Below, one piece after another: positions 3-59,900 of a stretch of DNA of 64,000 nt. The stretch's first letter is position 1. Each line of letters begins with the position of its first letter. Origin of the DNA: a virus. The stretch lies in the IMG/VR virus record IMGVR_UViG_3300027573_000023, positions 31,325 to 95,324 of that record. One strand, written 5' to 3'. Position numbers and translations under genes: made by a program. The notes under the pieces were generated by a model. The model did not search any database and had not been told where the DNA came from. It was given only the letters and a program-made list of their open reading frames with translations.

Positions 3-1202
3 TTTGCTTTAAATATAGATGCTTTAGGTAATGTCCTTCAGGTACCTATTCCAAGCACTGATTTAGGATATCTAGGAACTCCTTTTAGTGGAACAATAAC
101 AAGTAGTAGTGGTGATGATACACCAATTCCTATTGCAAGTCAATTTATAGCAGGATTAATGTCTGCTCAACTTTTTAATAAATTGAATTCCTTTGTAGAC
201 ACTAATTATGTACACAGAACAGGAGATGAACCTATTGCTGGTATCAAAACATTCAGTTCTATTCCAGTTGCTCCAGGATATTCTATTACAGGAGGGGGAG
301 CGCCTAACAGAGTGTTACTATCAGATGGTGGTACAGCAAGCTTTGTAGAAGTAACATCAGGTGGACAGACAGAGGTATTCTCATGGAAATATGAAACAAA
401 TCTAGCAGCAACAGATCCTGGAAATGGTAACTTTAGAGGAAACAATGCTGTAGGTAGTGCAATAACACAACTTTATGTGGATGATTTAACATCTGTTGTA
501 ATAGCAGATATATCAGCTATGTTTGCTAAAGTGAAAGGAGATTGGCTTATTCATATCCAACAAACAAATGATGCTACAAGATATATACAGTTTAATACAT
601 CTACAGTATATGTAGACAATATTGGATGGTGGACATTACCTGTTACTTATATACAAGGTAGTGGTTTTCCTTTTACTAATGGACAAGCATGTACTTTTGT
701 TTTTGTTAATCAAAATGCTGGAGCACCTCCTGCCACAACTATATTTTCACTGGTAGACTACAACATACCACCTACACCTGGTCTTAAGAAGTCTTTCAAT
801 ACATTTATTGATACAGTTGATCTTGATGTAGGTGTATATAAATTTGAATGGTTATTTGGAGCAAGAAATCTTAGTGTGGTTCAGTCTGAACTGTCAATTG
901 GTTTCTTAGGCACAGCTGCTGTCACTCCTAATAACATCAAGTTTTCGTGCAACGCACTCAAAGCAAATGATGTTGGTTCTCCAACAGCCTCCACTCAATC
1001 TTTTCAAAAAGGATTATTGAGTAGTGAATATATTATAACAGATAAGAATAATAGAAGCTCTGCAGCTTTTGCAATACAGGGGACTATACGTATCTTTGTA
1101 CCTGGTACACTTACTCCAGCAATATCTAGTGCTGGTTTGAATTCAGGTACAGCCATAATTGAAGATAGACAATTTTTTCAAATAACAAAATTCAATATAT
1201 AA
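3..1202 (+). CDS. Tail fibre / virion structural protein, 5'-truncated by the window edge
   Basis: Frame is open from base 3, upstream of the Met at 159. Contains fibre-type motifs AGLMSxxxFNKL and YVHRTGDEPIAGIKTF; beta-rich C-terminus. Confidence 0.65.
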   Translation, partial: FALNIDALGNVLQVPIPSTDLGYLGTPFSGTITSSSGDDTPIPIASQFIAGLMSAQLFNKLNSFVDTNYVHRTGDEPIAGIKTFSSIPVAPGYSITGGGAPNRVLLSDGGTASFVEVTSGGQTEVFSWKYETNLAATDPGNGNFRGNNAVGSAITQLYVDDLTSVVIADISAMFAKVKGDWLIHIQQTNDATRYIQFNTSTVYVDNIGWWTLPVTYIQGSGFPFTNGQACTFVFVNQNAGAPPATTIFSLVDYNIPPTPGLKKSFNTFIDTVDLDVGVYKFEWLFGARNLSVVQSELSIGFLGTAAVTPNNIKFSCNALKANDVGSPTASTQSFQKGLLSSEYIITDKNNRSSAAFAIQGTIRIFVPGTLTPAISSAGLNSGTAIIEDRQFFQITKFNI

Positions 1203-1951
1203 TGACTGCAAATAAACAAATAGGATGGAGCCAAGAGGCTATCTTGCTCCATGGCGTCTCTAAACAACTAGAGCGTCTCGCTAGCATCATAGGTGCTAGT
1301 GGTGGTGGAGGAGGTACAACAATCCCCACAGACTTGACATATACTGCAAGTGCTACTAATGGTTTACTAACCAGTAGTACAGGAGTTCTTTCTCCTGCTA
1401 CAATTCCTTTGGTAACAGGAAGTTTGGCTGGGTTAATGTCTCCTACAAGTTTCAATAAACTTGCAGCTCTACCAGCAACTGTACCAGTTACTACTGTATA
1501 TACTTTGTCAGCTCTTATGTCAAGTATTGTTACTAATAGGGTGGCAGTACCTGGATGGTCCTTTCCTGTGACTGCAGGCAAGAAATATAAAATAGAGATA
1601 TCTGCACTCTACCAGACTGCTGCAGCTACTACTGGAGGAAGCATAGGTGTTGTTCTAACTTCAGGAACTGGTACAATACAAGGTTATTTGGAAGGAGATG
1701 TGTCTACAGCTGCTGCAGTAGCAACAGGATTGAGAGGAACTATATCAGCTATAAGTAGTAGTAATGGTTTAGCAGGTAGTTCTATATTCACAACAGGTTC
1801 TGCTTCAATTAATACACCTACCTATATGGGTGGTATACTTACTTTTACATGTATTACTTCTGGTCAGTTTGAGGTTCAGTTTGCTACTGAGATAGTATCT
1901 AGTGCTGCTCAACTAAACGCAGGCAGTATAATGATAGTGACAGAATATTAA
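1202..1951 (+). CDS. Fibre-like structural protein with N-terminal KQIGWSQE motif
   Basis: 249 aa, G/S/T/A rich. Shares a TDL..TSS.G...IP.....AGLMS...FNKL segment with the upstream gene. Confidence 0.6.
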   Translation: MTANKQIGWSQEAILLHGVSKQLERLASIIGASGGGGGTTIPTDLTYTASATNGLLTSSTGVLSPATIPLVTGSLAGLMSPTSFNKLAALPATVPVTTVYTLSALMSSIVTNRVAVPGWSFPVTAGKKYKIEISALYQTAAATTGGSIGVVLTSGTGTIQGYLEGDVSTAAAVATGLRGTISAISSSNGLAGSSIFTTGSASINTPTYMGGILTFTCITSGQFEVQFATEIVSSAAQLNAGSIMIVTEY

Positions 1952-1982: not shown

Positions 1983-2120
1983 ATGCACTATCCAAATAAA
2001 CAGATAGGCTGGAGCCAGGAGTCAATACTACTCCAGCAAATTATAAAGCAATTAGTTAGAATTAATAATCTTGCTGGAGGAGGTGGTACGCCTGCTACTA
2101 CTACTAGTACAACTACATAA
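1983..2120 (+). CDS. 45-aa protein with KQIGWSQE motif and Thr-rich tail (not in ORF track)
   Basis: Translates MHYPNKQIGWSQESILLQQIIKQLVRINNLAGGGGTPATTTSTTT*; paralogous to the N-terminus of 1202..1951. Confidence 0.8.
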   Translation: MHYPNKQIGWSQESILLQQIIKQLVRINNLAGGGGTPATTTSTTT

Positions 2121-2141
2121 GTAATTTAAAACCAACTACAT

Positions 2142-3158
2142 ATGAGAGAATTAGCATTTATAACTGTATGTCCAGATGATCCTTACTATACATGGCAGGT
2201 TCATTTGTGGCTAGAGAGTTTAAGAGAAATTGGGCAATCAGATAAAGCTGTGGCCCTAATATTTACCCCTAATTATAGGGAGCAGAACCCAAAGTGGAAG
2301 CAGGTAGTAGATTTATATCCTGAAGCCACATTCAAATTTTATAAAGATGAAGATGATGTTACCTCTCTTATTGGTATTTATATCCCTGTGTTGCGACCTT
2401 ACACGATGTGGAAGTTCCTAAGAGAGCATCCCCAATACAGTAGTAAAGCAATATTCTATTGTGATAGTGATATATTATTCACAAAAGATTTTAATGTGGA
2501 TAAATACTTAGATGATGATGTGCATTATCTATCAGATACAAATAGTTATATTAATGCTACATATTTTGACAGTAAGGTAAGAGATGTTATCCCTGAAAAG
2601 CTGGAAGAATATAAGGCTAGAGATATTCTCGCTGAACTAACCAGTCTAATAGGAATAGATAGAGCTACTTGTGAAGCAAACAATGATCACTCAGGAGGAG
2701 CACAATACTTATTAAAGAATATGGACAGTGCCTTTTGGTCTAAAGTAATGAATGATTGCATTTTGATACGCACATATCTTCAGAAGATTAATAGAGAATT
2801 TTTCCTGTCTGAGGATGCTGGTTTCCAGAGTTGGTGTGCTGACATGTGGGCTGTTCTATGGAACCTCTGGTTAAGAAACCAGAAGACCATGGTTATACCT
2901 GAATTAAATTTTGCTTGGTCTACTGACCCTATAGATAAACTGGAAACTACTACTATCATGCACAATGCAGGTATAGTATCAGAAACAGGTAATGGTTATC
3001 CTGCCTTCTATAAAGGAAAGTATCATATGGGAGCTAATCCTATGCTTGATACACAGATAGATACAGTATTACAAAACGAAAACTCTCAAAAATATTGCAC
3101 TTGGTTCTATGCAAAAAAATTAAAAGAACTAAACGAGAAGTATAAATTAGTATATTAA
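2142..3158 (+). CDS. GT-A fold glycosyltransferase resembling peptide O-glycosyltransferases (GT95 HPAT / GT96 SERGT-like)
   Basis: DxD motif (YCDSDILF), plus YYTWQ, YIPVLRPY, SWCADMWA and IMHNAG in the order recalled for the HPAT/SERGT motifs. Confidence 0.7.
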   Translation: MRELAFITVCPDDPYYTWQVHLWLESLREIGQSDKAVALIFTPNYREQNPKWKQVVDLYPEATFKFYKDEDDVTSLIGIYIPVLRPYTMWKFLREHPQYSSKAIFYCDSDILFTKDFNVDKYLDDDVHYLSDTNSYINATYFDSKVRDVIPEKLEEYKARDILAELTSLIGIDRATCEANNDHSGGAQYLLKNMDSAFWSKVMNDCILIRTYLQKINREFFLSEDAGFQSWCADMWAVLWNLWLRNQKTMVIPELNFAWSTDPIDKLETTTIMHNAGIVSETGNGYPAFYKGKYHMGANPMLDTQIDTVLQNENSQKYCTWFYAKKLKELNEKYKLVY

Positions 3159-3176
3159 CCCTAAAACAATTTTATT

Positions 3177-3377
3177 ATGTTCAATAATCTTAATAAGAAA
3201 GACTTAAAAGCTTTTGTCAGAATCGATGGTACTGGCAGAGTTGTTGCAGGTAGCTTAATCCTAAGAAAAAATAAGCCCAAAGTAGGTAAATGGAGAGAGA
3301 TTCCAGCACATGAGTGTTGTCCACCACCAACTACTGCTGCTCCTGCAACTACCACAACAACCACTAGCGCAGCTTAA
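3177..3377 (+). CDS. Small basic protein with CC motif and Pro/Thr-rich tail
   Basis: 66 aa ending HECCPPPTTAAPATTTTTTSAA. Confidence 0.75.
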   Translation: MFNNLNKKDLKAFVRIDGTGRVVAGSLILRKNKPKVGKWREIPAHECCPPPTTAAPATTTTTTSAA

Positions 3378-3382
3378 TCATC

Positions 3383-3793
3383 ATGGCACACGAATCTATT
3401 TTTCCACAGTCTATGATGGATAATGCAGAAATGTCCTTGGAAAGTGTGGCAGCTAAGCTGACATATTTTCAAGTACAACTGCAATTTCTACATTGGCAGA
3501 CTCATAGTTTTGCTGAACATCAGGCACTTGGGGGGCTCTATGACTTTGTAGGGAAACTAAAGGATGAGATAGTTGAGAAACTAATGGGCTATGCAAATAG
3601 AAGAGTAGGCAACTTTAGGCTAGAAGCTATTTCTAGTGGAGAAAGTTCATCGACTGTAGTTAATTCACTTGTTACTTTTGCCTATAACTTAATTGAATGG
3701 GCAGGAGAAAATCATTATTGTGACATTGAGAACCTGGCTCAATCTCTTTCTGGAGAGGCAGCTAAAACCAAGTATTTATTGACATTAACGTAA
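3383..3793 (+). CDS. Dps/ferritin-like protein (phage DUF5856 type)
   Basis: LHWQTHSFAEHQALGGLYD...DEIVE ferroxidase-type motif and C-terminal KYLLTL. Confidence 0.8.
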   Translation: MAHESIFPQSMMDNAEMSLESVAAKLTYFQVQLQFLHWQTHSFAEHQALGGLYDFVGKLKDEIVEKLMGYANRRVGNFRLEAISSGESSSTVVNSLVTFAYNLIEWAGENHYCDIENLAQSLSGEAAKTKYLLTLT

Positions 3794-5859
3794 TGGATTC
3801 AAATACAAATGCAAATAACGCTGCTGGCATTTATGCCAGTGGCTTTGCATTTGGTAGAAATCCCACTCTTGCAGTTTGTTGTACGTACCATATATTTAGA
3901 GCATTAGATTATACTTCAACAACTAGTACTACAAAAAAACCTACTACTTCAACAACTAGTACTAGCTCTAGTACCAGTACCAGTACCAGTACTACATTAG
4001 TACCAACTACTACTACAACAACCACTATATTAATAACCACTTCTACAACTACTACAGTACCAACAACTAGTACTACCACTACACCTATACCAACAACAAC
4101 TACAACAACTACTATAGCACCAACTACTACAACCACATCATCATCAACATCTACTACAACTAGTTCATCTACAACTACAACAACTACTACTATAGCACCT
4201 ACAACAACTACAACCACAACTGTACCACCTACTACTACTAGTACTACAACTCCTATACCTACCACCACTACTACTACCACTGTTGCTCCTACTACTACAA
4301 CAACAACTATAGCTCCAACAACAACTACAACAACCACACCTGTACCTACAACAACTACAACTACAACTCCAGAACCTACAACAACTACTACTACTACTCC
4401 TGCGCCTACTACTACAACAACTACAACTGGTTTTCCATTTAATCTTTCTGTAGGTAATGCTTCACCAACTACTACATGTACTTTTACTACGTATCCAAAT
4501 CTAAGATATTCACGTACTGCACTTCCATTGATAAGTGGACAAATAATATATACAAACCCTGCATGTACTACTGTTATGAATGGTGCCGCTAACTATTATA
4601 AAGAACAAATATCTCAAATTGCTTGGAGAGTAGGTAGTGGTGGAGCTCTTTCCCTTCCTAATGATTGTAATACAACAACAACTACAACTACAGCACCACC
4701 TACCACAACAACTACAACTACAGCACCTGTTTCAACTACTACAACTACTACAACACTAATTCTATTTACTTTCTTACCAGAAGATCCTAATCTTACTTAT
4801 TTGGCAAGCAGAATTTATGATCCAATTGCAGACGTAACTTATATTTATGGAAACTTTACAGGATATAAAGATGCTGGAGTAGATAATTTTGATACAGTTC
4901 GTTTAATAAAACTAGATACTGATTTACATGTACCTGGTGGTTTTGATACTGGTACTGGATTTAATAGTGATACTGACTTATTTTCTCAAATATTAATTCA
5001 TCCTGCTGATGGTAAACTAATTGTAACAGGAGCCTTTAGTAGTTATAATGGTAGTGGTATATCAGGAATTGCTAAAATAGATGTAGATGGAACAGTTGAT
5101 GGTCCTTTTAATGCTGGAGGAACAGGATTTGGTGGTTTTCCTGGAAAAATGGATATTGGTTATGATGGTACAATTCTTGTTCCAGGAAGTTTTGGCTCTT
5201 ATAATGGTAATGCTTATCAAAACCTAATAGCAATAGACCCTTCTAGTGGATTACCTACTAGTGCTGTTTTTGGAGTACTTGATGGTGTTACATTTAGTAT
5301 AAGTGCTTCTAGAACTTTTGGAGATACTTATATGATTGTTACAGGATCTTTTGATAGTTATTATAGTAATTTTGGTTATGGTGGAATAAATAAAATAGAT
5401 TATATTACTGGATTTTCAGATAGCTCTTTTAACTCTGGTGGAGATGGTTTTGCTCCTCTTGCTGCTGGTACTCCAAATTTTGTAGTAAGACTTAATGAAG
5501 ACACTGATGGATCAATATATGTAGCAGGAAGTTTCACTACATACAATGGTGTTTCTGAACCTCGTATTATAAAATTAGATTCATTAGGGGCTAAAGTGGC
5601 TGCTGCTGTTTTTGATGCAGGAGGTGGGTTTAATCAAGCAGTGACTAATATTGAAGTTATCTGGGATAATAGACTCTTTATAGAGGGGCAATTTTCCAAT
5701 TATAATGGTACAGCATGCTATGGTTTGGTTATATTAAATTCTGATGGTACAATACTATATGCAGCACCTGTACCTTATTATACTCCTTTTACAGTAGGAG
5801 ACAATGTTTATGGTAGAACAGATGATGAAGGTTTACACATTATATTTACAAAACCATAA
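3793..5859 (+). CDS. Mucin-like Pro/Thr-rich protein with C-terminal delta-60-repeat beta-propeller
   Basis: About 170 aa of PTTTTTT repeats, a small Cys domain, a second Thr tract, then repeats of the type IYVAGSFTTYNG...RIIKL. Confidence 0.8.
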   Translation: MDSNTNANNAAGIYASGFAFGRNPTLAVCCTYHIFRALDYTSTTSTTKKPTTSTTSTSSSTSTSTSTTLVPTTTTTTTILITTSTTTTVPTTSTTTTPIPTTTTTTTIAPTTTTTSSSTSTTTSSSTTTTTTTIAPTTTTTTTVPPTTTSTTTPIPTTTTTTTVAPTTTTTTIAPTTTTTTTPVPTTTTTTTPEPTTTTTTTPAPTTTTTTTGFPFNLSVGNASPTTTCTFTTYPNLRYSRTALPLISGQIIYTNPACTTVMNGAANYYKEQISQIAWRVGSGGALSLPNDCNTTTTTTTAPPTTTTTTTAPVSTTTTTTTLILFTFLPEDPNLTYLASRIYDPIADVTYIYGNFTGYKDAGVDNFDTVRLIKLDTDLHVPGGFDTGTGFNSDTDLFSQILIHPADGKLIVTGAFSSYNGSGISGIAKIDVDGTVDGPFNAGGTGFGGFPGKMDIGYDGTILVPGSFGSYNGNAYQNLIAIDPSSGLPTSAVFGVLDGVTFSISASRTFGDTYMIVTGSFDSYYSNFGYGGINKIDYITGFSDSSFNSGGDGFAPLAAGTPNFVVRLNEDTDGSIYVAGSFTTYNGVSEPRIIKLDSLGAKVAAAVFDAGGGFNQAVTNIEVIWDNRLFIEGQFSNYNGTACYGLVILNSDGTILYAAPVPYYTPFTVGDNVYGRTDDEGLHIIFTKP
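3913..4428 (+). repeat. Degenerate ACN-codon tandem repeats encoding the Thr tract
   Basis: Runs of ACT/ACA/ACC punctuated by CCT/CCA; a second tract lies at about 4672-4755. Confidence 0.9.
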
Positions 5860-6500: not shown

Positions 6501-6674
6501 ATGAAACAAGTCCCCAAGGCTAAGGGAGGGTGGATAGCCAAAGCTGCAGCCTCTATTAAACGTAGAGGCACTAAAGGAAAGTGTACTCCTATAACCAAAC
6601 CAGGTTGTACAGGACGTGCTAAATCACTCGCCCTTACTTTTAAGAAAATAGCCAGAAAGAGAAAAAAGAAATGA
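6501..6674 (+). CDS. 57-aa Lys/Arg-rich protein (not in ORF track)
   Basis: MKQVPKAKGGWIAKAAASIKRRGTKGKCTPITKPGCTGRAKSLALTFKKIARKRKKK*; fills the gap and overlaps the next gene at ATGA. Confidence 0.75.
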   Translation: MKQVPKAKGGWIAKAAASIKRRGTKGKCTPITKPGCTGRAKSLALTFKKIARKRKKK

Positions 6675-7168
6675 CAAAGAGTACCAACCCTAGAAATGCA
6701 GTTAGAAGAGCTAAACTTAGAGGAGTTACAGTATCTGAACTTATTCTTATCGAGCAAGAAGAACAGATAAAAATAGATCAAGGATTTAAATGGTGTAATT
6801 CTTGTAAAGCCTGGCTTTTAAATTCAGAGTTTGGAAAAGCTCATTCATATTGTAAGCAATGTTGTAGAGATAGAAGTAATGCAAAATATGATCTCTCTAA
6901 ACAAAGAGAAAGAATTTTACAAAAGAACTTTGGTATTACAAGTTTAGAATACAATCTAATGTTGGCTGATCAGAATCACAGTTGTTATATCTGTCACATA
7001 CATGAAGATAAATTAGATAGATCTCTTGCTGTAGATCATGATCACAGCACAGGAAAAGTTAGAGGACTTCTTTGTGGAACTTGTAACAGATTTCTTGGTC
7101 AGATTAATGATGATGTACATACAGCTGAGAGGCTTGTAGAGTACTTAAAACAACATCAAAACCTTTAA
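6671..7168 (+). CDS. Endonuclease VII-family (His-Me finger) nuclease, probably a free-standing homing endonuclease
   Basis: FGIT..EY..ML..Q...CYIC...LAVDHDH.TGKVRGLLC..CN..LG, with N-terminal CxxC pairs. Confidence 0.9.
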   Translation: MTKSTNPRNAVRRAKLRGVTVSELILIEQEEQIKIDQGFKWCNSCKAWLLNSEFGKAHSYCKQCCRDRSNAKYDLSKQRERILQKNFGITSLEYNLMLADQNHSCYICHIHEDKLDRSLAVDHDHSTGKVRGLLCGTCNRFLGQINDDVHTAERLVEYLKQHQNL

Positions 7169-7195
7169 AAAAATTGCTAAAAAAAGAAAAGGAAA

Positions 7196-7441
7196 ATGAA
7201 AAAAGTTGTTAAGAAAGCACAGAATGGTGCTAAGGCTACTAAAGATAGTACAGACTATTTTAATAAAGAAGCAAAGAAGAATTTTCAAAAAGCTTCTGAT
7301 AGATATGGTTCACCAAGTCTTTCTAAGGAAGCCAGTAAATATAGTGACAAAGCTATATCAGCACAAAAATCTTCTTTAAGACAATCTAATAAAGGTAAAC
7401 CAGGCTATGATAAGAATGGTTATCCTATTAAAAAGAAATAA
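7196..7441 (+). CDS. Small Lys-rich protein (MKKxxKAxxG family)
   Basis: Starts MKKVVKKAQNG. Confidence 0.75.
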   Translation: MKKVVKKAQNGAKATKDSTDYFNKEAKKNFQKASDRYGSPSLSKEASKYSDKAISAQKSSLRQSNKGKPGYDKNGYPIKKK

Positions 7442-7477
7442 AACTTTTAAAAAAATTGCACGTAACAGAAAGAAAAA

Positions 7478-7600
7478 ATGAAAGAGAAACCTAAATCAAA
7501 GAAAAAGAATACAGCTCCTGCGAGAGATGTGATTCCTGGGTATAGATTACCCACAATGAATGCTAAAAATGGTAGGAGATTAACCACTAAAAATAAGTAA
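7478..7600 (+). CDS. 40-aa Lys-rich protein (not in ORF track)
   Basis: MKEKPKSKKKNTAPARDVIPGYRLPTMNAKNGRRLTTKNK*; contains AKNG. Confidence 0.6.
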   Translation: MKEKPKSKKKNTAPARDVIPGYRLPTMNAKNGRRLTTKNK

Positions 7601-7602
7601 TC

Positions 7603-7932
7603 ATGAAGAAGATTAAGAAAGCTCAAGCTGGAACTAAAGAAACAGCAGCAGAACATGATGCTAAGGCAGCTGCATTCTGGAAAGGAGTTGGTAAAAAAGT
7701 GGGTGATACTAAATTAAAAGATGTTCCAGGAAAAACTGTGAAAGTTGTTAAAAATGTAGGTAGTAAATTAATAAATTCAGGTAAATTGGGAGAAGCAGCT
7801 GAAACTACAGCCAATCTTGTTACTGCAGGATACTATGGAAAAGCAAAAAGAGCTATGGGAATTAAAAAGAGTGGAGGTAAAATGTCCTATAAAGCTGGTG
7901 GTAAAATGAAAAAATGTAAAGGAGGTTGTTGA
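7603..7932 (+). CDS. Small Lys-rich protein (MKKIKKAQAG...KKSGGK)
   Basis: Repeated KxGG motifs at the C-terminus. Confidence 0.75.
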   Translation: MKKIKKAQAGTKETAAEHDAKAAAFWKGVGKKVGDTKLKDVPGKTVKVVKNVGSKLINSGKLGEAAETTANLVTAGYYGKAKRAMGIKKSGGKMSYKAGGKMKKCKGGC

Positions 7933-7936
7933 TATC

Positions 7937-8026
7937 ATGAAAGAGCTACTCACATTGCTATTCTTTCTTGTTGTAGCAGGTGCAGCATTGTATTTTTTTA
8001 ACCATAAAAACGATGATGAGAAATGA
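7937..8026 (+). CDS. 29-aa single-TM peptide
   Basis: MKELLTLLFFLVVAGAALYFFNHKNDDEK*; ATGA overlap with the next gene. Confidence 0.5.
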   Translation: MKELLTLLFFLVVAGAALYFFNHKNDDEK

Positions 8027-8361
8027 AAAAGATTAAGAAAGCCAAAAATGGTGATAAAGTTGTAAGAAAAACAGTTGTTGATAAAACTGCTGCAAGAAAA
8101 CCTAATGCCCCTCTAGTCTTGAAGAGAGAGAATGAAGCAGATCTTACAGTACAAAGAAATGCAGCCAGAACTCATGACTATCACAGACAGTTAGATGTTG
8201 CTGCAGCAATGAAGTATCCTAAAGATGCAGACATGATGATGAAAGCTGCCAGAACTGATGATAGTTTAGCTACTGATGCTAAAAGAAAAGCTAGAGCACT
8301 TAAAGTTAAACCTAGATTTCCACAAAAAAAATCAGGTGGTAAAGTTAATAAAAAGAAATAA
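8023..8361 (+). CDS. Small Lys-rich protein (MKKIKKAKNG...KKSGGK)
   Basis: Same terminal motifs as 7603..7932. Confidence 0.75.
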   Translation: MKKIKKAKNGDKVVRKTVVDKTAARKPNAPLVLKRENEADLTVQRNAARTHDYHRQLDVAAAMKYPKDADMMMKAARTDDSLATDAKRKARALKVKPRFPQKKSGGKVNKKK

Positions 8362-8498
8362 TGCAATCAGGTAAACCTAAAAAAGCTCCTAAAGTTTCCA
8401 AGTATGACTTGGATAAGAACTATATGAAGGAGCATGATAAAAATGTAAAGAAAAAAAATCCTATGTCTCCTATGAGTAAGAAGAGACTATCAAAATAA
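8361..8498 (+). CDS. 45-aa Lys-rich protein
   Basis: MQSGKPKKAPKVSK...KKRLSK*; TAATG coupling; last gene before the terminator. Confidence 0.6.
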   Translation: MQSGKPKKAPKVSKYDLDKNYMKEHDKNVKKKNPMSPMSKKRLSK

Positions 8499-8571: not shown

Positions 8572-9258
8572 TTATAGTTCATCTTTTACTTGCTTATAAT
8601 AATCAGTTACAAAATGTGGATGTAATACTATGTCTCCTTTAGTATCATCAAGTATCTTATCTGCTGTCTCTAAAATTTTTTCATTTGTTTGTGTACCAAG
8701 CCCTGAGACATGGAATGTACCCATTCCCCATCTATATATCATGGTATAATGTATAGGTGTTGTATATATCTTGGAGTTATGACCAAAAGTAATATCACTA
8801 TCCTCTCCTGAGGACGTGTTAGGAAAAGTAATTCTATCCAAGTATTGTTTTGTATAAACATTCCCATTGTTAACACTGCCTGCTATACCATCATATTTAT
8901 TGTTAGTAAACATATACATACCCTGACTCCTGTAAATATCAAACCCTGGATGATTCAGTATATCCCCTTTGGTCTGTCTGAGGGCATAAGGCATCAGTAA
9001 ATCATCATCATCTAACCTATAGATATAATCATTTTTACATTGCTTATATCCCCACTCAAGCTTGGCTGATATAGAAGGAAACCTGGTCTTGTGATTTATA
9101 ATGACTACCTGTGGGTGATCATAGATATAATCCACCTCAGGATTATCATTGATAACAACCATTTCACAATCTGTAAGATCGTCCTGAGATAGGAAGGATT
9201 GTATTGCTTCTTCAAGGAGGTGATGTCTTTTGTAAGTTAATGTTAATACACTAATCAT
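8572..9258 (-). CDS. Glycosyltransferase family 2
   Basis: ISVLTLTYKR..LLEEAIQSFLSQ..EMVVIND..YIYRLDDDD; start placed at MISV (9258). Confidence 0.88.
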   Translation of the reverse strand: MISVLTLTYKRHHLLEEAIQSFLSQDDLTDCEMVVINDNPEVDYIYDHPQVVIINHKTRFPSISAKLEWGYKQCKNDYIYRLDDDDLLMPYALRQTKGDILNHPGFDIYRSQGMYMFTNNKYDGIAGSVNNGNVYTKQYLDRITFPNTSSGEDSDITFGHNSKIYTTPIHYTMIYRWGMGTFHVSGLGTQTNEKILETADKILDDTKGDIVLHPHFVTDYYKQVKDEL

Positions 9259-9898
9259 AATTTCCATTTTTTAGTTTCTTATTCCAAGTAGATCCAGGTT
9301 CCCAAGATGCTAAGGTATCATGTTTAAAACAATCGTTTTCCATATCTTTCCAATTAACTACTTGTAAATTAATATCATTTAATTCTTCTCTAAGTGCATC
9401 AACTGTTGATGTATTAGGATGAAGTCCAAGATATTTACAGATCACTTCACTCCACCAATTTGGACCAATCCATTGACCCTCATGAATTATATTATCAATC
9501 ATATTTCCTAAAAGGAAATGGTCTTTCTTAAAACCAAATATACCATTTGATAGTGCAGTCATTTTATAAGCATCACTATAAATAATGAAACCATCATGGT
9601 GTTCGTGTGCTATAACATCTGAATGAAATCCATTTATCATTTTAAAGTCAGCATCTAAATAGATTCCTCCAAATTTATAAACTACATACATTCGTAACAA
9701 ATCTGCCTTGATTGCTGGCTCTTTATAACTATCATATATTCTTTTAAGATTTTCTGGTAGCTCAGGTAGGTTATCATCAGTCCATAGATAGTAATTGAAA
9801 TCTTTATGATGTTCCTTTATCTCATCCATATAATTTTTTATATGCTTTGGTATTCTAGTATCACTTACCCAAATCTGATGTATGTTTTTTTCTATCAT
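9251..9898 (-). CDS. GT32/OCH1-like DxD glycosyltransferase
   Basis: IEKNIHQIW...YYLWTD...KADLLRMYVVYKFGGIYLDAD. Confidence 0.88.
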   Translation of the reverse strand: MIEKNIHQIWVSDTRIPKHIKNYMDEIKEHHKDFNYYLWTDDNLPELPENLKRIYDSYKEPAIKADLLRMYVVYKFGGIYLDADFKMINGFHSDVIAHEHHDGFIIYSDAYKMTALSNGIFGFKKDHFLLGNMIDNIIHEGQWIGPNWWSEVICKYLGLHPNTSTVDALREELNDINLQVVNWKDMENDCFKHDTLASWEPGSTWNKKLKNGNYD

Positions 9899-10520
9899 TT
9901 ACTTTATATATAAAATGTAGATTAGTTTTAATTACATCCTCAGTATACTCAGATATAACTTCGTTATCTATATACTTATCAATTACATTTCGTATGTTAC
10001 CATAGTTATAATCATCAAAAACAACAACTCCATCTTTTGTAAGTAGTTCTTGTGTAAAAGTAAAATCATTTTCAACAGTTGTAGTATCATGACCTCCATC
10101 AATATGAATCAAATCAAATGTATGTAATTCATTAGAAGCTACGTACTGTCTTAATGTTAGATTACTATCACCATATATCTCTGTTATCTTTGTATTTGGA
10201 TATGCATTTTTAATATACTCTATACATGGTTTAGTATATGCATGACCATTCAAATCAAAAATCAAATACTCTGCTTCAGGATTAGTGCTGACCATAAGTA
10301 ATAAACTATGGCCAGCATTAACTCCTATTTCACATATTTTTGATTTGTTTTCAGACAGTTTTAGTAGATTGTATATCTTACTTTCGTTTATAACATCTGT
10401 AAAGTTATCAGATGATACATCGCATATCAAATTACCTTCTACTCTTTCTCCAATTCTATCTAATATGTCAGCTATATTAGATATGTGGACTTTAACTTCT
10501 TGTTTTATTAAATCAATCAT
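9861..10520 (-). CDS. Class I SAM-dependent methyltransferase (Methyltransf_24-like)
   Basis: EIGVNAGHS, FDLIHIDGGH, VVVFDDY. Confidence 0.85.
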   Translation of the reverse strand: MIDLIKQEVKVHISNIADILDRIGERVEGNLICDVSSDNFTDVINESKIYNLLKLSENKSKICEIGVNAGHSLLLMVSTNPEAEYLIFDLNGHAYTKPCIEYIKNAYPNTKITEIYGDSNLTLRQYVASNELHTFDLIHIDGGHDTTTVENDFTFTQELLTKDGVVVFDDYNYGNIRNVIDKYIDNEVISEYTEDVIKTNLHFIYKVNDRKKHTSDLGK

Positions 10521-11418: not shown

Positions 11419-12093
11419 TTAATATTCTAGTTTATAAATACTTGTTATTTTTTTACCAGCTCTATTACTTTTTAGCCTTGTAATAGTTGGTAAAGACAAA
11501 GGAGAAATTGTAGATAGTTCCATTAAAGAATTGCTCTCCCAAGATTCATTAGTTAACAAATTAACTAACTTACATTTAATTCTAATTGGAGATATTTTTC
11601 CTAGATTTATCTGTCTTAATTTCTCTTTTGTTACTTCTGATAATACTTTACCAGTATGTGCCTCACTTAATCTTTTTTTAAAAGCTTCTGAACGTTTTTT
11701 CCCTGTTGTTGCTAGAATTCTTTTCTCAATAGTTTCTTTAGAATGTTTTCTACCTAATTGAGAGTTTCTCATTTTAGTTCTAGTTTCTTCTGAAAAATTA
11801 ATTCCACTAAGACCATCTCCCCCTAGAGTACAGTTTAAACCTTTAGTATAACTATTATTTTCTTTTATATGGTATTTTTCTAATATATCTAAGTTATCAT
11901 CAAAAACAAGGATTGTTTCTATTGTTTCAAATACATGATTTTGCCAACCATACTTTAATAAAGAGGCATATAATCTTGTCTGATTTTTACAGTTTAAGTA
12001 TTTATATTTACTCATTCTTGTTTCCAGATCAATTGTCTTCCCAATATAAACTTTACCACTTGGGTTTGTTATTTTATAGATATATCCTACCAT
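11419..12093 (-). CDS. GIY-YIG homing endonuclease with NUMOD3-like repeats
   Basis: GYIYKITNPSGKVYIGKT; SEETRTKM and HSKETIEK repeats; start placed at MVGY (12093). Confidence 0.9.
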   Translation of the reverse strand: MVGYIYKITNPSGKVYIGKTIDLETRMSKYKYLNCKNQTRLYASLLKYGWQNHVFETIETILVFDDNLDILEKYHIKENNSYTKGLNCTLGGDGLSGINFSEETRTKMRNSQLGRKHSKETIEKRILATTGKKRSEAFKKRLSEAHTGKVLSEVTKEKLRQINLGKISPIRIKCKLVNLLTNESWESNSLMELSTISPLSLPTITRLKSNRAGKKITSIYKLEY

Positions 12094-12097
12094 AATA

Positions 12098-12745
12098 TTA
12101 ATTATACTCCAGATCCAGAATTTTTCCAACGAGATCACTTCTGTGATTCTCTTTAAGTTTAATCCACTCTATACCATCTAGCTTTTTACTTAGCTCAATA
12201 GCATAGCTAAGCCCATTATAAGACTCTTTGATATCTTTTTGTTCGTTATCACCATTGATGATAATCTTACCTGTCTTACCAAGTCTTGTTAAAAGGGACA
12301 ACATCTCATGTTTAGTGAGGTTTTGTGCTTCTTCTATAACAAGAACATCATTGATAGTTTTCCCCCTAACAAATTGTACTGGAAAGGCTTTGATCTGTTG
12401 TGTCTTAATGTAGTCCAAGATTCTAGTCTTGTCATAACACATCATCAAATTTTCTTGGAAGGCTTCCAAGTATGGATCGAATTTTTCTTTAAGGTCTCCA
12501 GGTAGGAAACCTAAGGAATTACCAACTTCAACTGCAGCCCTTGTCACATAGACAAGTTCACATTGTTTGGTCATCAAGAACTCAAGTGCAGTATTAGCAC
12601 ATACTAATGATTTACCTGAACCTGCTCTCCCTGTGACTACAACAACCTGATTATCGATTATCAGTTGCTTCGCTTCTTTCTGTTCCTCATTAAGAGTAAC
12701 ATTAAAATGAATATCATTTTTTCTGGTTCTGTTTGCATCTTTCAT
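12098..12745 (-). CDS. phoH: PhoH-family ATPase
   Basis: GRAGSGKS, LGFLPG, FVRGKT, EEAQN, GDNEQ, NHRS. Confidence 0.93.
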   Translation of the reverse strand: MKDANRTRKNDIHFNVTLNEEQKEAKQLIIDNQVVVVTGRAGSGKSLVCANTALEFLMTKQCELVYVTRAAVEVGNSLGFLPGDLKEKFDPYLEAFQENLMMCYDKTRILDYIKTQQIKAFPVQFVRGKTINDVLVIEEAQNLTKHEMLSLLTRLGKTGKIIINGDNEQKDIKESYNGLSYAIELSKKLDGIEWIKLKENHRSDLVGKILDLEYN

Positions 12746-43066: not shown

Positions 43067-45445
43067 TTATTCTTTGATTATGCGCAGAGTTCTTTGCTCT
43101 GTTGCCTGATTAAGAATGATGTTATACATTCCTGTAGAATAATCTCTTCCAAACAAAGGAGAGTTAAATTCATCAGGCGTAATTGTTCTGGTCTCAACAG
43201 AACGTCCTAGAACATCATAGATGCTCATATTAATAGGATTGATAAGATTAGTACTTCTTACTGAGAAAGTGCTTCCAAATGGATTAGGATACACTGTGAA
43301 TGTAGACGAAGGCGCTACATTCCCTGTAGCATTAACCCCCTTTTGTGAACTTCTTATTGAAGTACAAGTAGATTGTGTTGTATTAGGTGATTTCACAACA
43401 TCACAATGTCTTCCAGCACCATTTTCATTGTTGTATCTGTCTAATAAAGAACCAGCTGCACCACATGTACCATTAGCAAAAGCTGCATTAACTAAAGCTT
43501 GTAAATCAGCTATAGTTGCAACTGAATAATCTAAAGTACCATCACAGATGTTTAGCAATGCTGCTACAGATTGTCTAGCTAAGTTGTTACAATCACCACC
43601 ACCTAAATTCAATGCTTGAAGCAATGTTAAACCAGCAGGAAGTGTTGAACCAGTGAATACAGAATTATATGGTGTACAAGTTGTATAACAATCCCAAGCT
43701 AATGTATGGTTTTTCCAGTATCCTAAAGTACAACCATTAGGTTGTGCACAAGATAAAACAAGAACAGTTTGACTGCAAGAAGCTGATGTGTTATCACACT
43801 CATCTTCAGCTGTCCAAGATTGTGTATGAGATACACTTCCATCAGGGTTATTTACAACTACTAAAGCACCTGGAATTATATCAATATCTCCAGGAGCAGT
43901 ACAATTGTCTGTTGCTGTTGGAGTATCAAATACAACTGCTGCATCACAAGCAACCTCTTTATTAGGTAAACAATTGATAACTGGAGCAGTAGTATCTATT
44001 CTGTATGTAAATACCTGATCACAAGTATCAAATAGACCACACGAATTTTCAACTCTATAAGTACGAGTAAGCGTTAGTGCGCAATCAGTACCAGTAACTA
44101 CATCACTAGATGTATATGGTAAAGTAGGGCAATCTGAATCAACTGTAGGAGCTGTTGGATCAGGAATGGTTGGGTTACAACCCAATGCTCCACCTGGAGC
44201 ACATGTAATAACTGGAGGAACAGCAGCAAGAATTTGAATACGTCTTACAAAAGGAATATCTGAAATACATCTGTCTGCAATTCTACCACTAATAACAATA
44301 GGTCCTTCACATAAAGAAGTTATAACAACAGGATCAAATGTTAATTGTGCAAGACAACCACCAGTATAACCAAATTCTGTTTTGTAAGCAGCAATAATTC
44401 CTAAAAGAGTACCTTCATCCACAATATCACATGCTGCAACTTCTCTGTCAGCAGGTAAAGTAGGCTCAATTACAGGAGGAGGAGTAATTGTATATGTTGC
44501 AGTACAAGATTCCTCTTGTTCACATCTGTCTGTTACTACCCATCTTACTGTAATTGCTCCACCACATAAATCAGGAGCTTGAATTGGTGCTCCAGGAATA
44601 GTATTAACAATTATTGGAGGAAAACCACCTGAAGTAGTAAATGAATCTAACCAATTTTGAAAATGTGCATCAAGAGCAGTTTGATCTGCAAACTGACATG
44701 AAGGGTGTGATAAAGTAAGAGGACAGTTTGTGATAATTGGGTCTGGTGGTACAGGAGCACCATTAATTACAGGAGAAGTAGCAGTACATCCATCACAGTC
44801 TGTAATTCTGATTACATAATTCTGTGGAATTACGCCAGGAAAGCTACCTGTAGTATTTGTTGCTACTACTACTCCACCAGGAGAGGTAACTAAATTATAG
44901 GTGTATTGTCCACAACCACCAGGGAGACTAGGGAATTGAACAATTTGATCTGATGTTCCTAATTTAGTACCAGTTAATCCAGGAGTAATTGATACAGTAG
45001 TGAGATCATTAGGACAATCTACAGGAGTAGCACTACCTTGTATAACTAAAACTTTAGTAAATACTGAAGCAGCACATCCTGTACCTGCTGGATCACCTGG
45101 TAGAGACATTCTAACTTCAGTAGAACCAGATAAAGGTCCTAAAAGTACAGCTACGCTATTAAACAAACCAGAAGAAACAGTAGTAGTAGAAGTTAGGGAA
45201 TTGTTGTTAACAAATCTAGCACCACCAGTACTATCTCCTGTAATAGTCCAAGTTAAGGTTGTACCATTATCTAAAAGAACACTTGCTGTAGTGTAGACAA
45301 TGAGGTTGCCAGGTCCAGCACAGACAAATCTAGGTTCAGCACTTGCATTACACTGTGCAGACAAATCATTCGTGCCCAATAACGTCACGACTAACAGAAA
45401 TAGTAGGGCCAATCTTTGGACACTACAACGTAGAATTTTTTTCAT
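43067..45445 (-). CDS. Secreted Cys-rich HYR/SprB-like repeat protein with type A T9SS sorting domain
   Basis: Signal peptide ending LSA|Q; repeats such as DTTAPVINC...PTATDNC; GCTLGYWKNH domain; C-terminal VYPNPF...IYDVLGR...GMY.I......RIIKE. Confidence 0.9.
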   Translation of the reverse strand: MKKILRCSVQRLALLFLLVVTLLGTNDLSAQCNASAEPRFVCAGPGNLIVYTTASVLLDNGTTLTWTITGDSTGGARFVNNNSLTSTTTVSSGLFNSVAVLLGPLSGSTEVRMSLPGDPAGTGCAASVFTKVLVIQGSATPVDCPNDLTTVSITPGLTGTKLGTSDQIVQFPSLPGGCGQYTYNLVTSPGGVVVATNTTGSFPGVIPQNYVIRITDCDGCTATSPVINGAPVPPDPIITNCPLTLSHPSCQFADQTALDAHFQNWLDSFTTSGGFPPIIVNTIPGAPIQAPDLCGGAITVRWVVTDRCEQEESCTATYTITPPPVIEPTLPADREVAACDIVDEGTLLGIIAAYKTEFGYTGGCLAQLTFDPVVITSLCEGPIVISGRIADRCISDIPFVRRIQILAAVPPVITCAPGGALGCNPTIPDPTAPTVDSDCPTLPYTSSDVVTGTDCALTLTRTYRVENSCGLFDTCDQVFTYRIDTTAPVINCLPNKEVACDAAVVFDTPTATDNCTAPGDIDIIPGALVVVNNPDGSVSHTQSWTAEDECDNTSASCSQTVLVLSCAQPNGCTLGYWKNHTLAWDCYTTCTPYNSVFTGSTLPAGLTLLQALNLGGGDCNNLARQSVAALLNICDGTLDYSVATIADLQALVNAAFANGTCGAAGSLLDRYNNENGAGRHCDVVKSPNTTQSTCTSIRSSQKGVNATGNVAPSSTFTVYPNPFGSTFSVRSTNLINPINMSIYDVLGRSVETRTITPDEFNSPLFGRDYSTGMYNIILNQATEQRTLRIIKE

Positions 45446-57567: not shown

Positions 57568-57871
57568 TAAGACATACATCAATACAGAGCTAGATTGGGC
57601 TGAAAGCCAGCTTTCCTCATGGAAAGCATATGTTGATGCTAATCCTCTGCATACTCTTGCAGACAGAATTGAATGGAAACCCACAGCTAAGGGAGGTGCG
57701 ATTCCTATGGTTATTGCTTCCATAGAAGCGCAGGGTAAATTTGTCCAGGAAACTATGAAAAACTATCTGGCCCTACTAGAAGTAGTGGATAAGCTGAGAG
57801 AAAAAGAGGGTGCTAAAAAAGAAGCTAGAGGACAAAGCACTGTTCCTCATAGAATGCAAACCCCAGAATAA
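57554..57871 (+). CDS. Pre-terminase protein, possibly terminase small subunit
   Basis: Helical, 105 aa, coupled to terL; assigned by position only. Confidence 0.45.
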   Translation: MALTNKTYINTELDWAESQLSSWKAYVDANPLHTLADRIEWKPTAKGGAIPMVIASIEAQGKFVQETMKNYLALLEVVDKLREKEGAKKEARGQSTVPHRMQTPE

Positions 57872-58758
57872 TGGAAATTAAATCTACAGAGTTCTTCAAG
57901 AACTTAAAGTCACTTCCCCCACCAGGAACCCAGGAATTTCAGGATCTTATCAAGTGGGAAGAAGAAAAAATTAAAGGTGGAGTCACTATAAATGGCGTGT
58001 ACATTTCTGGTTGGCTCTATTGGCATTTAAATCATTGGTGGATTAGAATTGATGATAAGGATGAGTATGGCAATGATGTCAGAATCACATCCCTGCCAGA
58101 ACTTCGTGATAATGAGTGGATTAGAGCTGAGACGCTTGAGGCCTGCAAAAGGAATAAAGAAGGTTATATGGAGGTGGGTGGAAGACAAGGTGGAAAGTCT
58201 GAAATGGAGGCTTCCTACTTTGGAATGAATGCAACATTATTTGAGAATACCCAAAACGTAATTATATGTGGAAACGACTATGACCTTTCACTACTGAAGG
58301 ATAAGGTAGACTTTGGGATGAAAAATCTCTGGAAAGGCATTGCGATACCACGTTTGGATAAAACCTGGCGCTCCAACCAAATACGTTTAGGATATAAAAA
58401 GCCTGATGGGGAGGATGCGATTTGGAGCTACATTGTTATTCGTAATGCTAAGGATGGTAATGTAACAGAAGTGGCAGCAGGTACCACAGCTAAGTCCTTA
58501 ATAATGGATGAGGTAGGGAAATATCCTTTCGCTGCCACGTTTAAAGCTGGGGAACCAGCAATTAAAGGGTCCAATGGATGGAGAGCTGTACCAATCTTAG
58601 TAGGAACAGGGGGATCATTTGACAGAGGACAAGATGCAGAAAATTTCTTTTATAATCCACGAGCTAATAACTTTCATGCGATACTGGATCCTGTTAGCAT
58701 AGGGAAACTGGTTTATTTCTTTCTGGTGTATATCGTCAGGATTGCAAGAAAGAAATGA
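57871..58758 (+). CDS. terL: Terminase large subunit, N-terminal ATPase part
   Basis: GGRQGGKS Walker A, IMDEVGK Walker B, GTGG. Confidence 0.9.
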   Translation: MEIKSTEFFKNLKSLPPPGTQEFQDLIKWEEEKIKGGVTINGVYISGWLYWHLNHWWIRIDDKDEYGNDVRITSLPELRDNEWIRAETLEACKRNKEGYMEVGGRQGGKSEMEASYFGMNATLFENTQNVIICGNDYDLSLLKDKVDFGMKNLWKGIAIPRLDKTWRSNQIRLGYKKPDGEDAIWSYIVIRNAKDGNVTEVAAGTTAKSLIMDEVGKYPFAATFKAGEPAIKGSNGWRAVPILVGTGGSFDRGQDAENFFYNPRANNFHAILDPVSIGKLVYFFLVYIVRIARKK

Positions 58759-59900
58759 GTTTAGGAGATTGGCTGACTATTAATAGGGGTATGACATTCC
58801 CCAAGAATGCAGACATTCGCAAGATTAAAATCAAGGCAGCAGATATTCCTAAAGCAACAGCTCTTATAGAAAAAGAGAGACTTGCAGCTAAACTAAATCC
58901 AGATAGAACCATTTATCTGAAACAGATAATGTACTATCCTCTGACAGTAGAGGAATGTTTCTTGAATTCAGGAGAGAACATCTTCGATATTGAAGGAGCT
59001 AAGAGACAGAAATCCAGATTACAGGAAGCTGAACACAGTGGTACTCCAGTAATACTTCATGATGATGGAGATGGAGTTAAGCATTCCTTCACAGACAAAC
59101 AACCAATCACTAACTTCCCAGCTAAAAAAGATGACAACAAAGACGCACCTATTATTATATATGAATTTCCTATCGAAGATCCTCCATATGGACTCTATGT
59201 TGCTGGAGTCGATCCATATAGACAAGGGAAAGCTGCGTATAGTAGTTCCCTTGGAGTCGTTTACATCTACAAAAGGATGCACTCCATTAGTGGAGAGAAA
59301 TACCAGGATATGTTTGTGGCAAGTTATTGTGCAAGACCTGACAGAAAGGAGGTCTGGGAAGACCAGGCCAGACTCCTGATTAAGTTCTATAATGCCAGAG
59401 CCCTGTGTGAAAACGATGAAATTTCTTTCATAGATTATATGATAGCCAAAGGTGACAGTCATTACTTGGAACGCCAGCCTATATGGCTTCAGGAAATTGT
59501 ACCTAACACTACAGTTAAAAGAGATTTTGGTATTCATAGGTCAGCTGAGAAAATTAGATTATTTTTGCATGGATGCTTGAAGAAATACACTGAAGAAGTA
59601 CTCATTAGGCCAATTACTGATGAGGATGGTACACAGCCTGAATTGAAAGGAATGACTAAAATATTTGATCCTCTCCTCCTAGATGAGATGATTGCATATG
59701 ATGACGAAGGAAACTTCGATAGAATAATAGCAGCTGAACTAGCTATAGCTCTCGCTATGAAACTCGATCCAATGATGGGAGCCATAGGTGGTGATGGAGA
59801 TGTGAGAATAAGGGCTATGTATGATAAGGACAAACCTAAAAAGAAATTATTCACTGTAACAAAGAACATGTTTACAGCTAACAATAAATTATTCAAGTAA
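58755..59900 (+). CDS. terL: Terminase large subunit, C-terminal nuclease part (frame open from 58698)
   Basis: YP....E.F, YVAGVDPY, CEND, NFDRI.A. Confidence 0.9.
   Translation: MSLGDWLTINRGMTFPKNADIRKIKIKAADIPKATALIEKERLAAKLNPDRTIYLKQIMYYPLTVEECFLNSGENIFDIEGAKRQKSRLQEAEHSGTPVILHDDGDGVKHSFTDKQPITNFPAKKDDNKDAPIIIYEFPIEDPPYGLYVAGVDPYRQGKAAYSSSLGVVYIYKRMHSISGEKYQDMFVASYCARPDRKEVWEDQARLLIKFYNARALCENDEISFIDYMIAKGDSHYLERQPIWLQEIVPNTTVKRDFGIHRSAEKIRLFLHGCLKKYTEEVLIRPITDEDGTQPELKGMTKIFDPLLLDEMIAYDDEGNFDRIIAAELAIALAMKLDPMMGAIGGDGDVRIRAMYDKDKPKKKLFTVTKNMFTANNKLFK

Follow-up and report, generated by a model that had tools for sequence, protein, structure and literature searches.

A predicted phage-encoded system for O-glycosylation of poly-threonine tags on particle proteins

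In mycobacteriophages Che8, Corndog and Myrna, phage-encoded glycosyltransferases (GTs) glycosylate the C-termini of capsid and tail-tube proteins (Freeman et al. 2023, Cell Host Microbe 31:1216, via PMC12363180, PMC12619734 and PMC10877033), and two of these citing papers describe the virion glycans as shielding the particles from antibodies (PMC12363180, PMC12619734). Here we report on a 64-kb stretch of phage DNA (the window: positions 31,325 to 95,324, the right-hand part, of the 95,324-bp virus record IMGVR_UViG_3300027573_000023, which is estimated to be 75% complete) in which a soluble GT is encoded among proteins that carry runs of threonine (Thr). We think it probable, with room for doubt, that this is a phage-encoded system which O-glycosylates poly-Thr tags on particle proteins; the proposal starts from what can be read directly, namely gene content, fold, conservation and co-occurrence. 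So far as we know, mycobacteriophages are the only phages for which glycosylation of the virion has been demonstrated. The principle is known; it is the enzyme family and the poly-Thr tag that are different.

The likeness to the mycobacteriophage system (Che8 gp108-110, Corndog gp38, and Myrna) lies in phage cytoplasmic GTs acting on the phage's own structural proteins, which in our case is predicted from the genes. The mycobacteriophage glycans are attached to capsid and tail-tube subunits at their C-termini, and the poly-Thr tails in GT-positive phages of Firmicutes, as candidate sites, may correspond to these. Poly-Thr is not found at the C-termini of the Che8 capsid and tail proteins, whereas the acceptor that we propose is a dedicated, portable poly-Thr tag; the window phage has this tag on fibre-like and mini-proteins, as against capsid and tail-tube C-termini in mycobacteriophages; and the hosts are Bacteroidota and Firmicutes here, Actinobacteria there. 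Homology of the window GT to Che8 gp108, gp109 and gp110 was considered and rejected (hhalign probability 0.06-0.65%), and no Mycobacterium phage was among the 77 phage records in which tblastn matched the GT. We found no publication linking this GT family to poly-Thr tags.

The preliminary description of this DNA had placed a DxD glycosyltransferase between three flanking proteins with Thr tracts, and all of the open reading frames (ORFs) concerned are present on the + strand, with the positions and features that it gave (Table 1). The Thr-repeat region of the 688-residue protein is indeed accompanied by a beta-propeller (DUF5122, Pfam E 1.2e-18), but is longer than the ~200 residues claimed: the stalk occupies residues 43-326 as (PTTTTTTTxA)n repeats, with 143 Thr in residues 40-330. 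Taking at least 6 Thr per 10 residues as a Thr tract, the only Thr-tract ORFs of the window are the three that flank the GT, and the whole record holds just one further, weak tract (TTTTQTT, in a 2774-residue protein); the clustering of tracts around the GT is far beyond chance. The tracts use mixed ACT/ACA codons and are built of degenerate 30-nt repeats (65-75% matches), and so are not pure slippage runs.

The GT cassette forms the distal end of a + strand structural block, in which three giant ORFs are followed by three genes with a shared N-terminal module, the GT gene, the gene for a 66-residue protein, a DUF5856 gene and the gene for the 688-residue protein. The shared module, IPNKQIGWSQE..LLW..SK.L.RL, is common to the three consecutive genes for proteins of 682, 249 and 45 residues, and we regard the last of these as a candidate glycan-bearing peg with the docking module of the two fibres. 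In the 682-residue protein the docking-like module is MGIPNKQIGWSQESNLLWEVSKELQRL, at the N-terminus; this protein also has a weak, sub-threshold match to BppL_N (E 0.0015), and a sequence search of the PDB with it gave no match. At the other end of the cassette the 688-residue protein is, on its predicted architecture, a candidate for a glycosylated mucin-like fibre. The DUF5856 gene, which starts 6 nt past the stop of the 66-residue protein's gene and precedes that of the 688-residue protein, has no evident role in glycosylation.

The 66-residue protein belongs to a family with 18 invariant residues across 28 sequences, including an ECC motif just ahead of the tag. In its AlphaFold2 model residues 11-42 form three strands (predicted local distance difference test score, pLDDT, ~90) and the tail is unstructured; a search with the model recognised no fold relatives. 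The window copy is without the first T7 block that is kept in all 27 aligned relatives (the L008-L081 homologues), its tag reading CCPPP-TTAAPATTTTTT as against CCNPTTTTTTTxAPTTTTTTT in the relatives, and tag length thus differs among close relatives. The N-terminal modules of both mini-proteins are conserved over dozens of loci, with dN/dS values of 0.16 (45 residues) and 0.09 (66 residues) at dS ~1.3, which are biased low by the selection of hits with a regular expression; because of this conservation with low dN/dS, both mini-ORFs are judged to be real genes, with both modules under purifying selection.

The association of GT and Thr tracts extends well beyond the window. Among 81 loci (the window, plus 80 from IMG/VR with GTs 63-81% identical to that of the window), the density of Thr-tract ORFs is 0.90 per kb up to 1.5 kb from the GT and 0.049 per kb farther out, an 18-fold enrichment. 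In 55 of these loci a Thr-tract ORF has its end upstream of the GT, under 100 nt away, and in 56 a Thr-tract ORF has its start downstream of it, again under 100 nt away. Nearly all of the listed upstream copies have the KQIGWSQE module with the tract from about residue 33, and nearly all of the listed downstream copies have the beta module of the 66-residue type with the tract at about residue 46. At some loci the protein stops after the tract; at others it goes on, either into a long stalk of Thr (~600 residues at most) or into a Cys-rich C-terminal domain. This variability of the C-terminal parts points to an architecture of N-terminal module, Thr tag and optional head. In a second clade, with ~34% identity to the window GT, 33 of the 70 distinct GTs begin no more than 150 nt past the end of a poly-Thr-linker protein (median 956 residues), while such tracts are found in 6.1% of the ORFs of at least 100 residues at the same loci.

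Cultured phages provide a contrast between presence and absence of the enzyme. The 77 records matched by tblastn are mostly of Lactobacillus, Enterococcus, Staphylococcus and Lactococcus phages, and in the small siphophages the GT gene lies within the head-tail operon, directly after the gene for the major tail protein (MTP) or the major capsid protein (MCP). In Enterococcus phage phiFL1A poly-Thr tails of 20-28 residues terminate both the MTP and the likely MCP; Clostridium phage phiCTP1, Lactococcus phage CHPC971, Lacticaseibacillus phage iLp84 and phage R3.3 follow the same pattern, and Planchet does so weakly. Chryseobacterium phage MA9V-3 has internal tracts, in two proteins encoded immediately upstream of the GT, so that seven GT-positive cultured phages carry poly-Thr on capsid, tail or GT-adjacent proteins. 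GT-negative phages with orthologous MTPs (30-60% identical) are Javan47, Javan505, Javan311, cIP1, phiJL-1 and SPP1, five of which also have an orthologous MCP, and in these six there is no virion protein with a poly-Thr tail. When aligned with MAFFT, the MTPs and MCPs match up through the final residue of the core, beyond which only those of the GT-positive phages continue, as a Thr tail. Two contrasts are independent: Enterococcus phiFL1A versus the streptococcal Javan phages, and Coetzeevirus R3.3 versus phiJL-1 and cIP1. Co-occurrence of this GT with Thr-rich ORFs across related phages had been named beforehand as a test of the proposal, and the outcome is strongly positive; the suggestion of a peptide O-glycosyltransferase among its likely Thr-rich substrates, made from the sequence of the window, is supported by co-occurrence in two metagenomic clades and by these contrasts.

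The enzyme itself matches phrog_4417 (E 1e-55), a family of unknown function. No Pfam family at E <= 0.1 and no NCBIfam model matched the window GT, and sequence searches of the PDB, with the single sequence and with a profile, returned chance matches only; the family is very large, falling into 2,597 clusters when grouped at 90% identity and into 762 when grouped at 50%. Its AlphaFold2 model (pLDDT 97) is a compact globular domain with a single Rossmann-like alpha/beta/alpha core of the GT-A type, into which a further helical segment is inserted (residues ~134-180). The sequence contains no hydrophobic run longer than 6 residues, and no membrane segment. The DxD motif is a DSD at residues 108-110, following a beta-strand. 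Invariant in 64 GT sequences are Y80, D108-x-D110, Y136, Q229, F257, H274 and K291, and D108 and D110 are at least 90% conserved in 87 further relatives; the family also has a signature of its own, QSWCADMW.

The closest structures to the GT model are retaining enzymes of the GT8 type, namely glycogenin (the top match), LgtC, Skp1 alpha-GalT and GlyE; UGGT, LARGE1 and WbbM are also close. A DNA-modifying GT was not the best structural match: the set is a mixture of enzymes acting on glycans or lipooligosaccharide (LOS) and several acting on proteins or protein-linked glycans. We take the order DxD ... Q ... H to match the metal ligands and active-site Gln of GT8 enzymes (LgtC, glycogenin), a correspondence presumed from motif order and not from a superposition of residues. 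The window GT is a soluble, metal-dependent transferase of the GT-A fold, probably a retaining one, that would use nucleoside diphosphate sugars. It differs from the GT8-type enzymes (glycogenin 1zcu, LgtC 1g9r, AgtA 6mw8, GlyE 5gvv) in that sequence identity to them is only 8-12%, and in its insertion at ~134-180 and its QSWCADMW signature; Glyco_transf_8 was not among the Pfam families matched by 151 GT relatives.

These structural matches bear on whether the enzyme would place the first sugar. Skp1 alpha-GalT, GlyE, UGGT and LARGE1 extend existing glycans and do not initiate on protein, and two further GTs are encoded in the window. This could mean that the Thr tracts are glycosylated but that the window GT only extends the glycan, the starter being the GT2 or GT32-like enzyme (8572-9898) or a host enzyme. 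We consider this unlikely: glycogenin, the top structural match, does initiate on a protein hydroxyl, and no other GT accompanies poly-Thr tags as the window GT family does. Moreover, in phiFL1A, iLp84 and phiCTP1 the GT is the only gene annotated between the MCP or MTP gene and the adjacent structural genes, and no immediate neighbour is annotated as a glycosyltransferase, these being annotations and not the result of a GT domain search of those genomes.

The hydroxyproline O-arabinosyltransferases of plants and algae (HPAT; GT95, PF23452) and the peptidyl-serine alpha-galactosyltransferases (GT96), to which the preliminary description had compared the motif order, put the first sugar onto hydroxy-amino acids of low-complexity Pro/Ser-rich peptides. 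The acceptor proposed here is Thr, and not hydroxyproline or Ser. The plant enzymes are type-II membrane proteins of the Golgi, whereas the window GT is soluble. PF23452 was matched by three of the 64 GT relatives (best E 0.012), and is the only Pfam family matched by more than two of them; it was matched by none of the 87 further relatives at E <= 0.001, and the window GT itself had no match to it (gathering threshold 23.9 bits). In ESM-Atlas feature space the GT has as neighbours (score 0.96-0.97) several clusters with PF23452 in 10-58% of their members. This family was not found in the phage record, in five Bacteroidota genomes or in 401 sampled Bacteroidota genomes, no GT95 structure was among the PDB matches of the GT, and our literature search found no HPAT-like enzymes in phages. 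Kinship with GT95/GT96 is thus not established by these sub-threshold HMMER matches and language-model neighbours, the closest solved folds being of the GT8 type, and on the sequences we treat it as a lead only.

A different line of evidence comes from bacteria. Homologues of the GT (26-32% identical, in fusions of 530-830 residues) are found in chromosomes of Sphingobacterium, Chitinophaga, Longitalea, Mucilaginibacter and Ferruginibacter, most of them without a poly-Thr ORF nearby. Small ORFs upstream of them have double-glycine leaders and Ser/Thr/Cys-rich cores; in one such precursor the leader is of the pinensin family of lanthipeptides (41.4 bits; cut-off 24) and the core has 13 consecutive Thr, and another matches the leader model TIGR04149 of RiPPs (peptides that are synthesised ribosomally and modified post-translationally). 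Neighbouring genes encode a split LanB, a LanC-like protein, HlyD, C39-peptidase ABC exporters (four loci) and a GT11 enzyme. Loci of this type are L182:253-10823 (Sphingobacterium detergens), L183, L184, L187, L188, L191 and L192. In having GT homologues beside leader-bearing precursors, LanB, LanC-like enzymes and C39-ABC exporters these Bacteroidota loci resemble those of glycosylated RiPPs; they differ in that the bacterial members of the window GT family are 530-830-residue fusions, and the products are predicted. Known glycocin GTs (of the SunS/ThuS type) belong to GT2, to which the window GT family does not. We suggest that clusters of the S. detergens type are candidates for encoding glycosylated lanthipeptides with an unannotated tailoring GT; we found no publication with this GT in pinensin-type clusters. 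As these homologues sit in RiPP clusters, independently of phages, they suggest that the GT family acts on peptide Ser/Thr.

They also raise the question of whether the phage mini-proteins, at only 45-66 residues, belong to the particle at all, given that the bacterial homologues would tailor RiPP peptides for export. The Thr-tailed mini-proteins could be non-virion products tailored by the GT, such as decoys, assembly regulators that contend with fibres for their docking site, or peptides of the RiPP kind. This seems to us very unlikely. The cassette has neither a double-glycine leader nor an exporter gene; the N-terminal module of the 45-residue protein is that of the two fibre-like proteins immediately upstream, and at other loci these N-terminal modules are extended by long stalks and C-terminal domains in the manner of fibres. 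As for the Firmicutes phages, it is the major capsid and tail proteins themselves that bear the tags.

Several points weigh against our proposal of O-glycosylated poly-Thr tags. The contrasts between presence and absence amount to few independent events, of which two are clear. The GT8-like fold does not specify the acceptor, and two equally good matches, LgtC and WbbM, have LOS and lipopolysaccharide (LPS) as their acceptors. In the second clade 22 of 80 loci have no Thr-tract ORF in the DNA examined; poly-Thr linkers are common in secreted proteins of Bacteroidota, and part of the association between GT and poly-Thr could come from the style of the host lineage. The major capsid and tail genes are absent from the record, so far as it is complete, and incorporation of the Thr-tract proteins into the virion is suggested only by their position after fibre-like genes and by the shared docking module. 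The window GT could also elongate rather than initiate. As to host-lineage style, the contrasts among Firmicutes phages argue against it as the source of the association.

A more radical alternative is that the acceptor is not protein but host envelope polysaccharide, LPS, teichoic acid or phage DNA, the poly-Thr tracts being unglycosylated flexible linkers that happen to share a variable fibre locus. The fold would allow it; we nevertheless hold it to be improbable, because in Firmicutes siphophages the GT is inside the head-tail operon after the MCP or MTP gene and is present only with poly-Thr tails, because the enzyme is soluble without a membrane segment, and because its bacterial homologues are in RiPP peptide clusters and not in polysaccharide loci. 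Against DNA as acceptor, a hydroxymethylase of the thymidylate-synthase type was not found on the 75%-complete record in a search that detected its controls; Tet/JBP was not found on it either, which is weak evidence as the positive control also gave no signal.

We propose that the tags are made and used as follows. The cytoplasmic, metal-dependent GT-A enzyme (phrog_4417) would place a sugar derived from a nucleotide sugar on Thr runs, before or during virion assembly, so that the poly-Thr tracts would serve as genetically encoded, portable glycosylation tags; PTTTTTTTAAPTTTTTTT is a candidate acceptor sequence. In the window phage the tags would be carried by the 45-residue protein on a fibre docking module, by the 66-residue protein on a beta module and by the 688-residue protein as a stalk below its propeller, and the result would be a particle bearing glycan pegs and mucin-like fibres, a coat which may act in shielding, adhesion or stability. 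A broader idea, possible in our view but somewhat short of probable, is that this one unnamed GT-A family is a dedicated poly-Thr peptide O-glycosyltransferase used in two settings: a tag-and-coat system of thousands of Bacteroidota and Firmicutes phages, in which a short tag is transferable to proteins of the capsid, tail or fibres and to tiny docking proteins, and the glycosylation of lanthipeptide-like peptides in Bacteroidota RiPP clusters. With interchangeable N-terminal docking modules, bare glyco-pegs might then compete with full fibres for the same virion sites in the window phage.

If our proposal is right, virion glycosylation would be widespread, occurring in phages of dairy fermentations, in temperate and lytic Enterococcus phages and in abundant environmental phages of Bacteroidota, and this would change how the adsorption, stability and immune recognition of such phages are read. 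The enzyme and its tag would be a compact pair for glyco-engineering, and the RiPP link, if true, would offer natural-product mining a new class of tailoring enzyme. The family is large and unannotated, and its members in cultured phages, together with a synthetic peptide, make the hypothesis directly testable.

Further sugar genes are found 5 kb from the window GT, where genes for a GT2 enzyme, a GT32-like enzyme and an O-methyltransferase form a single overlapping operon on the minus strand (8572-10520); their products would probably extend and methylate the glycan. Relatives of the window GT are fused to GT2 domains (4 of 87 representatives), methyltransferases (Methyltransf_24 in P0146 and P0167), GT6, GT7, and GlcNAc-transferase and protein O-fucosyltransferase domains. 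Given these fusions and the nearby operon, it is plausible that the glycan is built in several steps and possibly methylated. The operon resembles the arrangement in actinobacteriophages (Rhodococcus cluster CB), where methyltransferase genes have been reported beside GTs of the virion type.

Table 1. Genes of the GT cassette and of the accessory sugar operon, in window coordinates
Feature	Position	Strand	Basis and remarks
682-residue fibre-like protein, C-terminal 399 residues	3..1202	+	gene start upstream of window, G000 30478
249-residue fibre-like protein	1202..1951	+	N-terminal KQIGWSQE module, then Gly linker
45-residue mini-protein	1983..2120	+	KQIGWSQE module, GGGG linker, Thr tail TPATTTSTTT
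338-residue soluble GT-A glycosyltransferase, proposed Thr O-glycosyltransferase	2142..3158	+	phrog_4417, DxD, fold model
66-residue mini-protein	3177..3377	+	~46-residue beta module LKAFVRxDGxGRxVxGSLxLRxxxPKVGxW..ECC, then Thr tail; ends CCPPPTTAAPATTTTTTSAA
136-residue DUF5856 / Dps-like protein, four-helix type	3383..3793	+	Pfam E 3.4e-10; phrog_858 ('starvation-inducible regulator')
688-residue protein	3793..5859	+	~40-residue N-terminal region, ~285-residue Thr/Pro/Ser stalk, C-terminal DUF5122 beta-propeller
GT2-family glycosyltransferase, candidate glycan-extending enzyme	8572..9267	-	PF00535 E 1.5e-11
DXD sugar-binding glycosyltransferase (Gly_transf_sug, GT32-like), candidate glycan-extending enzyme	9251..9898	-	PF04488 E 1.3e-12
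O-methyltransferase (Methyltransf_24 / Methyltransf_3), candidate sugar methylase	9861..10520	-	domain match

The record as a whole is that of a large phage, with terminase and portal genes on the + strand and with DNA polymerase, primase, helicases, UvsX and rIIA/rIIB on the - strand. Its host is very probably a member of the Bacteroidota, because all 15 of the 15 genomic relatives of the window GT are in that phylum. A 792-residue protein encoded at 43067-45445 (-) has a HYR-like domain and a C-terminal sorting domain of the type IX secretion system (Por_Secre_tail, E 6e-7); by its sequence it looks built for export through the host's own such system, and the sorting tail also points to a Bacteroidota host.

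Upstream of the window the three consecutive giant ORFs (4730 residues with an open 5′ end, 2463 and 2774 residues; G000 1-30457) take up ~30 kb of the 95-kb record ahead of the fibre genes. The large terminase is encoded by two ORFs in different frames, 57871-58758 and 58755-59900 (+), with an ATGA stop/start overlap, and both match phrog_6681, the first as its N-terminal and the second as its C-terminal part; either the gene is genuinely split, or there is a programmed or an apparent frameshift. Small basic proteins, very rich in Lys/Ala, are encoded in a row at 6501-8498 (+), after the fibre/GT cassette and before the GT operon of the minus strand, and could be DNA-binding or internal virion proteins; three of them (7196-7441, 7603-7932 and 8023-8361) are paralogues without a family match that start MKK(I/V)(K/V)KA(Q/K)(N/A)G. 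Genes for an endonuclease VII (6671-7168, +; PF02945, E 4e-24) and a GIY-YIG/NUMOD3 homing-endonuclease-like protein (11419-12138, -) bracket the region with the basic-protein genes and the GT2/GT32/methyltransferase operon.

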